Shown here piece after piece: positions 3,001 through 9,000 of a stretch of DNA of 34,707 nucleotides (positions within the stretch are counted from its first letter, which is position 1; each line of letters opens with the position of its first letter). This stretch comes from Nanobdellota archaeon (lineage in GTDB: Archaea > Aenigmatarchaeota > Aenigmatarchaeia > QMZP01). The stretch covers positions 1 to 34,707 of the forward strand of contig JBDRJQ010000032.1 in assembly GCA_043814765.1 (NCBI GenBank), read 5' to 3'. Made by a program: the position numbers.

Positions 3001-6000
3001 TACTGAACAACACTTGATTGTCCAAGAGGAACAAGGAAGGTATCGGCTCCTATATCCTTTGCTGCTTTTGCTTTTTCTATAATACCACCAACTGGTCCAA
3101 TTGTACCATCAGGGTTAATTGTTCCTGTTATCATAACTTTGTCACTGACAACCTTATCCTGCAGTACAGCTATGGTAGCAATTGTCAGTGCAGCTCCTGC
3201 TGACGGTCCTTCTATAACAGAGGCGTTTGCATGAATGCTGTAGATTATGTCAAAATCAGACAACTTTATGCCTGTTACATCCTCTGCAACTTTCTTTGCT
3301 GTTCTTATAGAGGTTTGGGTGTCTGTCCAGAAAAGAAGTTTGTCTATATTTGTAAGGACTCTTCCTTCGCCGGGAACCAATTGAACAGTTAACACAGTGG
3401 CTACTCCCTTACCGTCTTCACCAACGCCAGGAACTTTAATGCTAGATATGGATATTTCCAGGTTTTTTTCAATAAGGTTGGCATATATGTCCTCGTTTAT
3501 AACAATAGGCCGTTCTGTTATTATGTGAACAGTCTCAGAACTGAAATAACCACCAATATATGTTCCTAATAAAATTCCTATGATAAGAATCGTTATTTTC
3601 CTTTTCATTAAGTTCCTTTAATCATTGGTGTTCATTTAATAAATTTGTGAATCTTATCAGAGATTTAAAATGAACAATATGCTCCTAAAGCCGGCTTAAA
3701 TCAGATTTTTAGTGGCAAAGCTTACTAAGAGAAAAAGATATTTATCGTTTGAATATCCAGAATCCCTTTCGTCTTTTCTTGCCTGATTTTATCTTTTTCT
3801 TGCCTGCTTTAAATAAAATGCCCACTCCAAAAAAAATCACTATCAGTGCTATCATTATAATTATAGCACTGACGACAACAACATTATATGCGCCACCAAA
3901 CGGTTCTGCTGCCCAGCCGCTTGTGGGAAAGGGAAACCCGCCTGTGAAAACACACTCTTGTTTGTCATTGTCCCAATAGCCGGTCTTCTTGTTTACTACA
4001 AAGTACTCCGGATAAAAGGTCTGGCCGCTGCCAATCACTTGGAGACCTCTCGAATGGACAGCCTCAATGCAGGGGTCGTCGTCAAAAAAGTCTAGCACAC
4101 GCCACTCCGAACGTATTGTTGTGGCTCCGGCAGGCCATAAATCTGTGGGGTCTGGATCCGGATATGGAAATATCCAATCAACACATGCCGAATGCTGGTC
4201 CAATCCTCCCAGATAGTTGCATAAATTCTGGCATTTGGGGTAGTAATTTCCCTCAGGATTTGATGGCGAGACAGAAAACTCTCCGGGCGCGTTCCCATCG
4301 TAAAAATCACCAGTGAAGCCATGCCTGCTCCTGTCCCTAAATACAAGCGAATAATAAAACCACTGGGGGTAGTCCGTGTCTAAGTTTACATTTGCCTTCG
4401 CCTGATGTTGCTTGTTTGCATCTATGTCCAGTTTTATCGGCCCCTCGAAAATGGATATTATGTCTGTTCCTGACCAATCCTCATTCATAATCATCGGGTA
4501 TCCAAAGGTATTGCCGTTTGCCAGATCCATCTCAAAATTGAACCAGCCATAAAGGGGATGGTTCATCAGCTCTTTTCTTATCTTCATTATGCTGCCGCAA
4601 AAGAAGCACTGTTTGGCATCCCTTACATATATCGTAGCTGCTGGCGCATCGGATATGCTGCCTCCGTCAGAAATCACACCAAAATACACGCCAGGACCTA
4701 ACGTGGAATGCAACGTGTTTTCATAATTGGTATCATATTCCATATGGTAGTTCCCAGTAAAAATTATGTCATTCATTGGAAAATCAAGGAAATCATGAAA
4801 AACAAAATTCTGCTGCCTTATTTCAGACTGGTCTATTATATCAGGCATCTTTTCGTTCCATGTATTTTTCTCATGAGGGAAGTCTGTTGCAATGTTCATT
4901 GCGCTATATTCATAGTCAGGATTGCCAAAAGCGTAATAACCAGTCGAGAAATGATATTCATGCCTGTCCCAGTCATTGTAGTTCCTGAAGAACGTCTTGT
5001 AAGGGCCGTACCCAAGTTCTTTCCATCCCATCATCACACCAAGATCCATATTAGCATTAGTTTCATTCACTATGATGTTGAGCGCATAGCTCAGGTGCTC
5101 GAAACCATAGCTATCGACTATTTCATCAGCATTGGTTTCAAGCTCAACAAAACTAGGGTCATCAAAATCTATGACCATCATATATTCGTCGACCATGCCG
5201 GTAAGAGAAACCTTTGCCAGCCACACCATGAAATGGTTGTCCTCATGCGACAAAACAAGTGCATCCAGCTGGTAGGGTGAGTCCGTGTCTATTAAATCTT
5301 CTGTCACAGGTATCTCATAAATAGGATTGCCTAGCGAGTCGTGCTCTAGGTTGCTTAAATCATCTTCTGACAAGATGTACTTCACATTGTCATTGTCAGG
5401 AGGTGATGGCCTGTTAAACAGATTCTCCATTCTCATAAGCAGTATATCGACCTTTTTTGTTTTTTCCAGGTCCATGTTCTTGAACCGCAGCACAACCTTT
5501 TTTGTGTCCATTTTTACAGCGTCTCCGGGGGGCAATAATGAAGAGCGTGATGAAGAATCGCTGGTTGCTTGAAGTGTGTCGCCAAAATTGTATGTATTTA
5601 TTACATTCCCGTCATCATCAAATTCTAATATATTTATATTGCCTCCTGATGCAGTTGCTATGCATACCATGTCTCGTGGCACCAGGACTTCGTAGTCATT
5701 CGAATATATGATGGAATACGGCTCTGTCATGTCAGGAACCAGATCCGAGATAACAGTCCTTTCATGTGTTTCATGGAAAGGATTTTCTGACACAGTTTGA
5801 GCCTGAACCGGTACTAGAAAGAATAAAAAGATTATTGACATGATAAAAGAAAAAAATAATTTATTCATATATTATTATTGCTTTTAACCTATATATTGTT
5901 TTTGAAAATAGTGGGACGCGCCGTCGGTGGATGCCTACCAATAGAAACGGTTGACCGAACTTTCGCCTCCACTCTGTGAACCCTACAAGCGCCAATGCTA

Positions 6001-9000
6001 CAGCTTAGAGCTGCTGCATCCCTGCCCTGACTCGGTTCACCATAACAATAACCCTATAGGACAGAGCTTCGCAGTTGAAAGTGCGGGCCGCAACTACCAG
6101 TTGACATCGCCCTCAGGCTTCGGCCGCGCCATGAAGGCGGTTTGCACTTACAGGGAACGCCTAACTCCCCAGCCTAGTCCCATTTAAAATAAGCTTGCAG
6201 TATTTAAAACTTTTACAGTAACTTTCTTGCTAAAAGAATCATACTGGGTCTTTTAATCATTATATCGCTTAGCAATTTGAACTTTTTTGCCTTGGATAAA
6301 GCAATTAAATCATCACCAGAAAGATAGTCAACAAGCCAGTTGAAGTCATCATCCTTCATTGACTCAACAACTTTTCGCAGTTTTTCTATTTTTTGCAGTT
6401 TTTCTCCGCGCTCGTTCCACCATAACTCATTGTATTTTGAGAGTGCTTCTTTGGATATGTCTCCTGATTTTATGGCTTCTGATGCTACTTCACCGGCTAT
6501 GCGCCCGCCGACAAAAGATTCGGATATGCCGCCGCCATGTATTGGATTAACCTGATGAGCAGCATCACCTGCAACCATAAAGTTGTCCAAAACCATATCC
6601 TTCATTATAGCTCCCACAGGCACTCCGCCTGCATTGAACTCTATTATTGAACCTTTTTTCAGGCCTTCCCTGGAATTTATGAAATCTTTAAGATACTCTA
6701 TGGCTTTTTTACTTGCCCAAGGCTTTCTAACACCAATGCCAACATTAGCGTTTTTTCCACCTTTAGGGAATATCCAAGCATAACCAGCAGGAGCAATTTT
6801 TTCGTTTCCTAGATACAGTTCAAGCCTATACTGATCAACATCAACATTAGCCATTTCAAACTGTGCACAAGAAGCAACATCTTCGTGTTTCAGTGTTGTG
6901 TTTATACCTGCTTCTCTTGCAAGCTTTGACTCAACTCCGTCTGCGGCTATAACTATCTTTGCCTTTACATTCATCTCTTCATTCTGGTGCTGTATTTTAA
7001 CACCAACTATCTTATCTCCGTTTTTTAGTAAGGAAAGCGCTTCTGTTTTAGCCATGACAATTGCACCAGCTTCTGCAGCTTTTCTTGCAAGAAACTTGTC
7101 AAAAATCTTTCTCTCTATGACCCATCCTTCTATGTCATCAAAGTCTGCTCTAACATACCTGCCGTCAGGAGCATAAATAGTAGCTCCTTTTATTGTCTGG
7201 CATATCCATGAAGGATCTGGCTCTATACCCATTCTATCTGCAGCTGATTTAGATAATCCTTCACCACAGCGTTTTGGTGAACCAATCTCTGCACGCTTTT
7301 CAATCATTAAAACGCTTAAGCCTGTTTTAGCAATGGCCTCAGCCGCACCAGAGCCAGCTGGTCCGCCACCAACTACAACAACGTCATATTCATTCTTTAT
7401 GTTCATTTTTTCACCTTTAGCGCATCAACCGGACAGAATCTTACACAAAATTCACAGTCTATACACTTATCACTGCATGTAATGCCATGCTCTAATAACG
7501 TAAGTGCTGATGTTGGGCATACTCCGACACATCCACCACAGCGTGCACATTTGTCCTTATTAACCTCTATCATAGTACAATAGTTTGCAAATACACATAT
7601 AAACTTTATTAATGCGCCTAAACGAATTCAAAAAGAAAGAAAAAAAAGAAATTGGCTTCTATAAAGGCCTTGATTCAATTAATCCGAATAGTTCCAAGGC
7701 GCCAACCACTGTTACAATCAGTAACATTATCCATGCCACCAACTGCAGTATATATGACCCCCATATCATTATTTGGTTTATTCCAAGTCCTGTCCAAACC
7801 GTAAATTCGAATGTTCCTGATAAGAATAGTATCACTGTAGTAAGTACGAGTAGGTTCCATGATTTTACCATTACCTTACTGAGCTTAACGTACTCTAGGA
7901 ATACTACTGCCAATAATATAGCTACTATGTAAATTACGTCTACCATTTAATCACCAAATGTTTACACTGTGGGTCTTGCTGCCAATTTGTATATAGCCTT
8001 TAGTGCCACTATCAATGCTGCAGGTGCAACGAATGCTGCTATGTTAGTTACGATGTTAGTTAGGTATACTCCTAAATTCACTATGTCCAAACCACTAAGT
8101 GCGGTTTTAACTAACATAAATGCAATTGCTGCAATCAAGAAAGGCTGTGTTTCTTTTTCATTGATGTTTATGAATCCTACAATAATACCCAAAACAATGA
8201 GTACAATCGTTATCATTCCACCAGTTGCTAGGTCAACAAATCCTGATGCCAATCCTGCTATTATTGCTATGATGACACCTAAAATAAAGGCCCAATGTCC
8301 GTACTCTGTATTAACCATTTTTTAATCACCTTATTTTTATATATGAACAAGGCTCAATATAAAGATTTTTTCGGCAATCAACGTTTTTATTCGTGATTTA
8401 ACGGGATATTTAGAAAGCTAAAAATACTTCCATACCAGTTCCAATAAGGACTAGTATTATACCTAAAATAAGGATTTTTATGCTGTCTATGAGTATTATC
8501 TTGAATACTTTAGAACCATTCTTTCTTATTATAGAAACTGAAATAAGTCCACCAGCAAGTGCTGCGCACACATAACCTCCTATTTCTGGTATTGCGTGTG
8601 GCATCATAAACAATGAAAAAGGAATTTGCCATATAGGAGCATTCCACACAACTTTAGAATACTGTCCTAGATAAACACCCAATATTGATGCATTCCATAC
8701 TATTATGAAAACCGCTCCAGCACCAAAGATTAATGAGAACAAGAAAGAAAAGAACAGCACTTGAAGATTATTGCCTGCTATCAAAGAGAAGTTGTCAACA
8801 AACATGCCCTCTGCAAAATAACCTGTTGGCAAGGCTGTGCCTCTCATCTGAGCTATCTTAATCATCTGCACTTGAAAAAAGTCCGGTGGCAAGTAATATG
8901 ACCATACAGCAAAGCTTATGGCAAGACCAAAAAAGAAAACAAGAAACAATATTATATCCTGATTGTGTTTGTCCCAAAAATTCTTTTTATAGTGTTTTAA

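Follow-up and report, generated by a model that had tools for sequence, protein, structure and literature searches.

The window, a stretch of 34,707 nucleotides from an Aenigmatarchaeota assembly, contains an SRP RNA gene of 275 nt on the minus strand (6184-5910), the only copy found in the genome (single nhmmer match). RF01857 is matched over its full length, scoring 133.8 bits against a cut-off of 96.5; the GC content of the gene is 56% versus 39% for the window, and no plasmid match to it was found. The Alu domain and helix 8, reported as retained in a preliminary description of this DNA, are both present with their motifs intact. The locus comprises the following features.

5910..6184, minus strand: SRP RNA gene without helix 6, 275 nt (RF01857)
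6119..6184 (lower boundary approximate), minus strand: helix 1, 5' strand, together with helices 2-4 of the Alu domain, from the cmscan alignment
6152-6148, minus strand: U-turn UGUAA of the Alu domain, from the cmscan alignment
near 6164-6158 and 6141-6134, minus strand: complementary loops of helices 3 and 4, from the cmscan alignment
6053..6062, minus strand: 5' strand of the 5e hinge region
6039..6052, minus strand: 5' strand of a continuous 14-bp stem, from the cmscan alignment and covariation
between 6046 and 6045, minus strand: expected branch point of helix 6
6005..6038, minus strand: helix 8, predicted SRP54-binding site
6038-6034 with 6007-6005, minus strand: asymmetric loop of helix 8, GAACC with UAA
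6022-6019, minus strand: GGGA tetraloop of helix 8, which also has the symmetric loop CAGG/AGCA
5981..6004, minus strand: stem, 3' strand, with the 5e motif of archaeal type
5910..5917, minus strand: helix 1, 3' strand, with a short run of T after it
6201..6214, minus strand: probable promoter, a putative TATA-like box (6208-6201) with an upstream purine-rich BRE-like stretch
5951..6187, plus strand: 78-aa ORF antisense to the structured RNA, probably spurious
6213..7406, minus strand: geranylgeranyl reductase family gene, the upstream neighbour (TIGR02032 above cut-off)

The promoter elements were read from the sequence against the TATA and BRE consensus; a sigma-70 promoter scan, unsuited to archaea, was set aside.

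Several hallmarks of a canonical archaeal SRP RNA were observed, namely helix 1 and an Alu domain with UGUNR, an archaeal 5e motif placed 20 nt from helix 8 on the 3' side, as in the euryarchaeal register, and the helix 8 SRP54 motif with a GRRA loop. On the contrary, helix 6 with its GNAR tetraloop is absent, as had been claimed before. In the cmscan alignment its 40 model positions face 0 nt; about 41 nt are missing, from the 5' strand only, and helix 5 continues straight into helix 8. The MFE and centroid folds both run from helix 5 to helix 8 with no side branch, which alone is weak evidence because the z score is only -1.87. Across the former junction, the positions of the 14-bp stem are paired in 69-100% of 35 distinct phylum rows and in 63-99% of 108 metagenome rows, and the observed pairing was reached by 0 of 500 shuffles at 11/14 and 14/14 positions of the stem, a result that is not a probability because the rows are related. 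In parallel, a helix-6 profile gave 73 matches in a control set but none in 71 phylum RNAs and none in the genome, where the best E was 4.1. Lacking helix 6, the RNA is therefore a homologous variant of the RF01857 SRP RNA rather than the canonical form. With helix 6 removed from the 5' strand only and the three-way junction closed to a continuous 14-bp stem, the hinge lies as far from the SRP54 site as before.

The same architecture prevails in the phylum, where helix 6 is absent from 70 of the 71 RNAs read, extending an earlier count of 9 in 10 relatives. Spacers were counted by an anchor method, window-limited folding having been discarded for its spurious branches. Between 5e and helix 8, the spacer was automatically measured at 30 nt or less in 66 of the 71 RNAs (23-25 nt in 64), and four more that had been mis-anchored are short by eye. 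None of 96 named euryarchaeal RNAs was found to have a short spacer: 86 are long, 5 were mis-anchored but visibly carry helix 6, and 5 were left unparsed. On the 3' side, both groups have a spacer of about 20 nt. Of the 142 phylum matches, 14 fall below the RF01857 cut-off, some of these 14 with insertions; loss of helix 6 probably explains the low scores of such RNAs against the archaeal model. Long phylum RNAs were considered as helix-6 carriers and rejected. One relative, G072, was described as having a hairpin at this site; the RNA of the genome so labelled here, which may be a different one, has none. The single phylum RNA with a hairpin there belongs to G062, and its insert is probably a tRNA-type intron and not helix 6. 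The SRP RNA of Thermoproteus is reportedly processed by the tRNA splicing machinery, in species that retain SRP19. This RNA is permuted and circularised (PMC4731332); the system bears on the introns of relatives, whereas the gene of the window is neither permuted nor interrupted.

SRP54 (440 aa) and FtsY (414 aa) are both encoded, as first reported, and SRP54 is of the archaeal type with an M domain. No SRP19 gene was found in the genome (88% complete), either with all search filters off (best E 0.65) or beside rps8e, which SRP19 adjoins in 11 of 30 control loci. The absence across the phylum, originally based on 41 genomes, now extends to 0 of 151 genomes with PF01922 over cut-off and to 0 of 371 with NF001973 at E<=0.001. 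The latter profile was positive in all four archaeal controls and detects the Sulfolobus SRP19, so that the gap left by that control is closed; it gave two weak phylum matches (E about 0.006), inside frames of 331 and 430 aa. SRP19 was present in 38 of 41 euryarchaeal genomes, and among the best 120 of 631 matches of an SRP19 protein search the named ones were all euryarchaeal, which does not bear on DPANN. Every genome is an assembly with incomplete coverage, the first filter of the genome search is loose, and the filter-free search covered the genome of the window.

Across Archaea, 80 genomes were sampled and 78 of them yielded an SRP RNA: 37 combined SRP19 with a long RNA, 37 had a short RNA and no SRP19, 4 had a long RNA and no SRP19, and none had SRP19 with a short RNA. 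Three of the four are Hadarchaeota and the other bears an intron. Short RNAs were found on DNA assigned to Altiarchaeota (L369), Woesearchaeota (L335, L356) and Nanoarchaeota (L395), as well as in Undinarchaeota (G460, G504), Iainarchaeota (G496) and Micrarchaeota (G507), the last two assigned by one marker gene each; each lineage assignment of such DNA depends on a single protein, either flanking or a marker. Thus the absence of helix 6 and SRP19 holds phylum-wide as first described, but it is not specific to the phylum and extends through the DPANN lineages reached. The 24/20 register of the healed stem recurs in 108 of 120 metagenome rows, a figure partly set by the search pattern, which favours short RNAs and fixes the 3' side, and also in the lineages examined within the unbiased sample. 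No helix 6 remnant was seen among the DPANN RNAs read. A candidate case outside DPANN was rejected. G467, G490 and G532, whose best FEN1 matches are Thermococcales, cannot be placed there because their phylum sample consists of small genomes whose RNAs, matched in 30 of 41, all span 262-278 nt; by elimination we take their phylum to be DPANN. The metagenome hit L351 is a bacterial small SRP RNA. In Hadarchaeota, SRP19 was found in 0 of 66 genomes with a profile positive in 5 of 5 divergent controls, and helix 6 with a GNAR loop in 25 of the 26 RNAs read, G715 having a stub. Published data agree with the protein pattern: in Supplementary Data 25 of PMC13473441, each of the 12 DPANN columns and that of Hadarchaeota give SRP19 as 0%, and the seven others give it as 91-100%. 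The helix-6 loop is listed as present in Thaumarchaeota (PMC2905702, Table 2).

Compared with the canonical archaeal 7S SRP RNA (RF01857; M. jannaschii, A. fulgidus; PMC2905702), the particle differs by the absence of helix 6 and SRP19 and therefore of the helix 6-helix 8 adenosine clamp, which was considered a likely feature of every archaeal and eukaryotic SRP RNA (PMC2905702), and by a variable helix-8 loop (GGAA 49, UGAC 4, GGGA 3 and GAAA 3 of 59). In the same work SRP19 was placed in all archaeal subgroups, coexisting with helix 6. The term 'Bacillus-like', previously applied to this SRP, fits its architecture. As in the bacterial large (6S) Bacillus-type SRP RNA (RF01854; PMC4231752), an Alu domain without helix 6 and one rod that terminates in helix 8 are observed together with a GAACC/UAA(G) asymmetric loop, the strands sum to 44 nt in both, and the RNA would likewise work with one SRP GTPase. 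The term does not extend to origin. The RF01854 score of 54.5 bits (E 6.9e-8) lies below its cut-off of 60, the register is 24/20 instead of the 22/22 found in 15 of 24 distinct bacterial rows, and the 5e hinge and protein partners are archaeal. Among solved structures, SRP54 best matches 3NDB and 3DM5 (M. jannaschii, P. furiosus) at 378 and 376 bits versus <=273 bits for chains labelled bacterial-type SRP protein, and it scores below the TIGR00959 cut-off, unlike a bacterial Ffh partner. Another comparison is offered by the srp19 deletion strain of Haloferax volcanii, in which SRP works without SRP19 but with helix 6 intact (PMC2905702). Hadarchaeota look like the natural counterpart of this laboratory deletion, with DPANN one step beyond.

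The RNA is most probably a working, vertically inherited archaeal SRP RNA in derived form, SRP19 having been lost first and helix 6 then once, on or near the DPANN stem. The SRP54 M domain would bind helix 8 directly, as Ffh binds bacterial SRP RNA. Archaeal SRP54 does bind RNA without SRP19 (PMC2905702), and the GAACC/UAA loop, like the bacterial consensus, may aid this binding with no need of helix 6 to shape it, while the Alu domain presumably still contacts the ribosome. A particle of RNA and SRP54 alone, as first proposed, is no more than a possible composition: L7Ae binds SRP RNA in Sulfolobus (PMC5539422), and an unrelated partner may take part. Loss of SRP19 alone would have produced the Hadarchaeota state, with helix 6 and its GNAR loop kept, and deletion of helix 6 would have come next, ahead of the divergence of Altiarchaeota, Undinarchaeota and the reduced lineages. 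This single loss is read from the distribution; several losses inside DPANN are possible, because G715 shows that helix 6 can erode alone after SRP19 loss. More tentatively, and with doubt outweighing belief, SRP19 may have been lost in an ancestor shared by Hadarchaeota and DPANN, a 'DSA' clade proposed from a uS7 insertion (bioRxiv 10.64898/2026.06.17.729505), and helix 6 then cleanly deleted on the DPANN stem including Altiarchaeota.

Alternatively, DPANN never had either component, helix 6 and then SRP19 being added after they branched off. This would require no loss, would suit the free-living Altiarchaeota, which also lack both, and would explain why architecture, asymmetric loop and strand sum agree with RF01854. 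However, the 5e motif and the register are euryarchaeal, with 20 nt on the 3' side and not the bacterial 22, and Hadarchaeota must then branch second or lose SRP19 anyway. Moreover, an archaeal root on or within Euryarchaeota is supported, with an SRP19 probability of 1 in the archaeal ancestor and a root-dependent 0.3 in the DPANN ancestor (PMC13473441). We hold this history to be improbable, and equally so that DPANN retain a particle that dates from the last universal ancestor and predates SRP19. Repeated independent losses of SRP19, then of helix 6, during genome shrinkage would leave the trait saying little on relationships. They could draw on the dispensability of srp19 in Haloferax (PMC2905702), on Hadarchaeota without SRP19 and on the eroded helix 6 of G715, but the shared 24/20 register, the lack of remnants in the DPANN RNAs seen and the unreduced Altiarchaeota make them quite improbable.

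Replacement of the SRP RNA, or of the whole SRP, by a bacterial one through gene transfer could account for the shape, the loop and the RF01854 match; it is already largely refuted by the scores of RNA and SRP54 and by the archaeal 5e and register, and we give it hardly any credence. Just as little is given to an SRP19 too diverged to detect or a helix 6 supplied in trans. The protein is small, the lineages evolve fast and the genomes are incomplete, with the filter-free search restricted to one of them; yet three profiles fail, the main SRP19 site is gone without helix 6, and the helix-6 profile stays silent where its controls respond. An undetected SRP19 is more plausible in Hadarchaeota, which keep helix 6, than in DPANN, but even there it is unlikely.

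Helix 6 and SRP19, the textbook marks separating archaeal and eukaryotic from bacterial SRP, are both missing throughout one phylum and, to the extent sampled, from the DPANN radiation, and Hadarchaeota show that the two are separable. The absence of SRP19 stands in published supplementary tables, and no mention of it was found in a text search of two of the papers concerned; for the loss of helix 6, no paper was found in the literature covered, which excludes the passages of PMC7203096 on SRP19 and helix 6. The trait provides a discrete character for DPANN monophyly, the placement of Altiarchaeota, the DSA clade and the archaeal root; were the DSA reading true, it would support DPANN monophyly and DSA independently of sequence trees. 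The three natural states (both, helix only, neither) also form a series for probing the roles of helix 6 and SRP19. As to the surroundings of the gene, the geranylgeranyl reductase family gene adjoins the SRP RNA on several related contigs as well.

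The SRP RNA gene of the window gives a full-model match of 133.8 bits to RF01857, the Rfam archaeal SRP RNA, in which the 40-position helix 6 block is set against 0 nucleotides, and the RNA folds into a single rod from helix 5 to helix 8. Helix 6 is thus lost, as the preliminary description had stated, and the RNA, a variant homologous to the archaeal SRP RNAs, fails one of their defining features. It is the only SRP RNA match in its assembly (859 kb, 88% complete), and the SRP54 and FtsY genes both lie on contigs other than the window. The following features were observed in the window:

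2049-3608 and 3742-5868, minus strand: TatD and a gene with a Lon-like S16 protease domain, both seen again close to the SRP RNA on related contigs
6184-5910, minus strand: SRP RNA gene
6208-6201: TATA-like box, read by eye from the sequence, a probable promoter element
9344-11836, plus strand: SMC gene of 830 aa against about 1,170 model positions, its coiled coil shortened
12843-15315, plus strand: MtrA-like gene, thymidylate synthase and dCTP deaminase in series
16918-21249, plus strand, and 23770-32645: heptose-nucleotide synthesis genes (HddC, GmhB, HddA, GmhA-like), two B12-binding radical SAM genes and glycosylation genes

NCBIfam gave no match for the 708-aa gene that follows the SRP RNA immediately downstream. 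At another locus, L393, the SRP RNA likewise has an MtrA-like gene and thymidylate synthase in its neighbourhood.

Across Aenigmatarchaeota, RF01857 matched in 142 of 151 sampled genomes, spanning 264-289 nt in 121, 304-399 nt in 20 and being cut in one. Seventy-one of these RNAs were read, including all 20 long ones. The spacer between the 5e hinge and helix 8 was at most 30 nt in 66 of the 71 by automatic anchor (23-25 nt in 64) and was short by eye in four more whose anchor was misplaced (G018, G028, G039, G056), while none of 96 named euryarchaeal RNAs had a short spacer, the usual value being 62-66 nt. With a 3' spacer of about 20 nt in either group, the loss of some 41 nt falls on the 5' strand alone; in the phylum RNAs, an unbroken 14-bp stem showing compensatory changes has taken the place of the former junction. 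The absence of helix 6 therefore extends over the phylum, with genome G062 (spacer of 67 nt) as the exception.

At the helix 6 site of G062, a 43-nt insert (L011:1640-1682) carries a bulge-helix-bulge (BHB) motif and lacks a GNAR loop. Taking it out restores the register of the close relative G096; judged from sequence, the insert is probably an intron. In the long phylum RNAs, helix 6 was ruled out as the source of the extra length by the insert positions, which lie in the Alu domain, in the helix 8 loop or 3' of helix 8. Alignment to short relatives defined 36 insertions, several of them noise. A strict BHB was found in 12, where 1.5 would be expected, and two of these have implausible boundaries. 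The inserts of G009, G026, G049 and G084 have a 4-bp BHB core with an inner stem of only 1 bp, and their excision yields the helix 8 loop of two family members without an intron, G073 and G105. BHB-bounded inserts of about 16-50 nt, often in the helix 8 loop, split the SRP RNA genes of Aenigmatarchaeota relatives (L011 of G062; L196-L199, L202-L204, L210, L225), and excision by the standard rule gives back a canonical helix. A second G062 insert lies at L011 about 1709-1739, and others occur in the Alu U-turn (L190, L192) and 3' of helix 8 (L193, L200, L201). Outside DPANN, helix 8 loop inserts in six Hadarchaeota RNAs (L478, L555-L559) and one SRP19-bearing genome (L470, G469) look like the same intron type.

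SRP19, also described as missing throughout the phylum, was indeed not found: PF01922 gave no match over cut-off in 151 phylum genomes (six sub-threshold matches at E 0.02-0.1 were partial or spanned stops) and NF001973 none at E<=0.001 in 371. A profile of 30 euryarchaeal SRP19 proteins, run unfiltered over all six frames of the genome that holds the window, gave none (best E 0.65), and what follows rps8e there is the gene of an unrelated 186-aa protein. In a control search, PF01922 found SRP19 in 38 of 41 euryarchaeal genomes, in none of seven Aenigmatarchaeota and not in the one bacterial bin. The earlier gap, a Sulfolobus control missed by the SRP19 model, is closed by NF001973, positive in all four archaeal controls.

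The proposed likeness to Bacillus holds for the shape and the GAACC/UAA loop, common to window-type and bacterial RNAs and carried also by the consensus of RF01854, the Rfam bacterial large SRP RNA; it does not hold for origin. Of 71 phylum RNAs, 59 fit a pattern with UAA, while TAAG was present in 2 of 105 controls. A bacterial import was rejected given the 54.5 bits of the window RNA against RF01854, the different strand lengths and hinge, and an SRP54 closest to archaeal structures. Of 24 distinct rows of bacterial SRP RNAs from viral contigs, 15 have 22/22 strands and most of the remainder are mis-anchored; their hinge motif is unlike that of the window RNA. The window RNA would function like a bacterial large SRP without being one. 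From known SRP systems, SRP54 would most likely bind helix 8 directly, the healed stem would preserve the hinge-to-SRP54 distance, the Alu domain would act as usual and FtsY would receive the particle.

Short RNAs were also found beyond the phylum. A metagenome pattern, fixing UAA and a 20-nt 3' spacer, returned at least 120 stretches; of the 120 listed, 99 were short automatically, 20 lacked helix 6 by eye and one was cut, at least one being bacterial. Flanking proteins assigned L335 and L356 to Woesearchaeota and L355 to Aenigmarchaeota (8 of 10 proteins found, three with lineage), and L395 to Nanoarchaeota (9 of 10 found, one with lineage). L369 is altiarchaeotal by its five best named adenylate kinases (72-83% identical), and its RNA (RF01857, 152 bits) sets 2 nt against 38 model positions. 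In the PMC10266531 supplement, the Nanohalococcus SRP RNA, given as reverse complement, shows no helix 6 on reading by eye, and its read count there is high; the SRP passages seen of the main text do not remark on it.

Since this pattern favours short RNAs, an unbiased sample of 301 genomes across Archaea was added, with SRP19 searched in all (matches in 146) and the RNA in 80 (G460-G539; matches in 78). SRP19-positive genomes comprised 37 with RNAs of at least 306 nt and, among the 78, none with a short RNA; SRP19-negative genomes comprised 37 with RNAs of at most 286 nt and four with long ones. The RNAs read (35 of 37 short, 32 of 37 long) all agreed with this division. A quick tree of one gene, FEN1, placed G460 and G504 in Undinarchaeota, G496 with Iainarchaeota and G507 with Micrarchaeota.

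Of the four SRP19-negative genomes with a long RNA, three are Hadarchaeota and the other is G501, whose extra length has the place and span of that in the intron-bearing G003. In the phylum of G650 (66 genomes; G650 FEN1 is 92% identical to a named Hadesarchaea protein), the SRP19 profile, positive in five of five genomes with divergent SRP19, matched in none, and SRP19 was not beside rps8e in any of five loci. SRP RNA was found in 55, 54 of them at least 304 nt long, and helix 6 with a GNAR loop in 25 of 26 read (four of them judged by eye, their fragment having taken another fold). SRP19 loss is therefore possible while helix 6 stays, in line with compaction of the archaeal S domain by a helix 6 adenosine and not by SRP19, as stated in section 4 of PMC2905702. 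In G715 (L548), helix 6 is a short stub without GNAR loop, an independent erosion.

These distributions fit best a history in which SRP19 was lost first and helix 6 second, the latter on the DPANN stem, and we consider this history probable. Ancestral absence appears unlikely. Repeated loss, slightly less likely still, has the Hadarchaeota stub as an instance of separate erosion. A clade of DPANN, Altiarchaea and Hadarchaea has been proposed (bioRxiv 10.64898/2026.06.17.729505); PMC13473441 instead groups Hadarchaeota with Methanobacteriota and Hydrothermarchaeota, a placement that would need two SRP19 losses.

PMC2905702 reports SRP19 in all archaeal subgroups, coexisting with helix 6, and the rows shown of its Table 2 include no DPANN group. 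The absence of SRP19 is recorded in supplements: 0.0 in Aenigmarchaeota (37), Diapherotrites (25), Micrarchaeota (13), Pacearchaeota (90) and Woesearchaeota (196) in PMC8204110, an identical row in PMC9258230, and 0% in 12 DPANN columns and Hadarchaeota in PMC13473441. A text search for SRP in PMC8204110 and PMC13473441 returned no mention. Literature searches over mostly non-subscription papers, in the larger cases over the best 20-40 matches, showed no paper on an archaeal loss of helix 6 or on introns that interrupt an SRP RNA.

Some further variation was observed. The SRP54 gene at L038:1039-2361 (minus strand) has the GTPase motif DSAGRD against DTAGRH in relatives. In the short RNAs L510, L512, L504 and L507 (G505, G484, G461, G526), the helix 8 apical stem has 2 bp, not 3. 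Some DPANN RNAs have a UGAC loop in place of GGAA, as do two SRP19-bearing genomes (G474, G497). L056, from a bin titled Nitrospirota, holds a Methanoregula-like archaeal SRP RNA and a bacterial-type match, probably through contamination. Finally, in the 384-nt SRP RNA of L516 (G493), the region of helices 6 and 8 appears to be partly duplicated in tandem.
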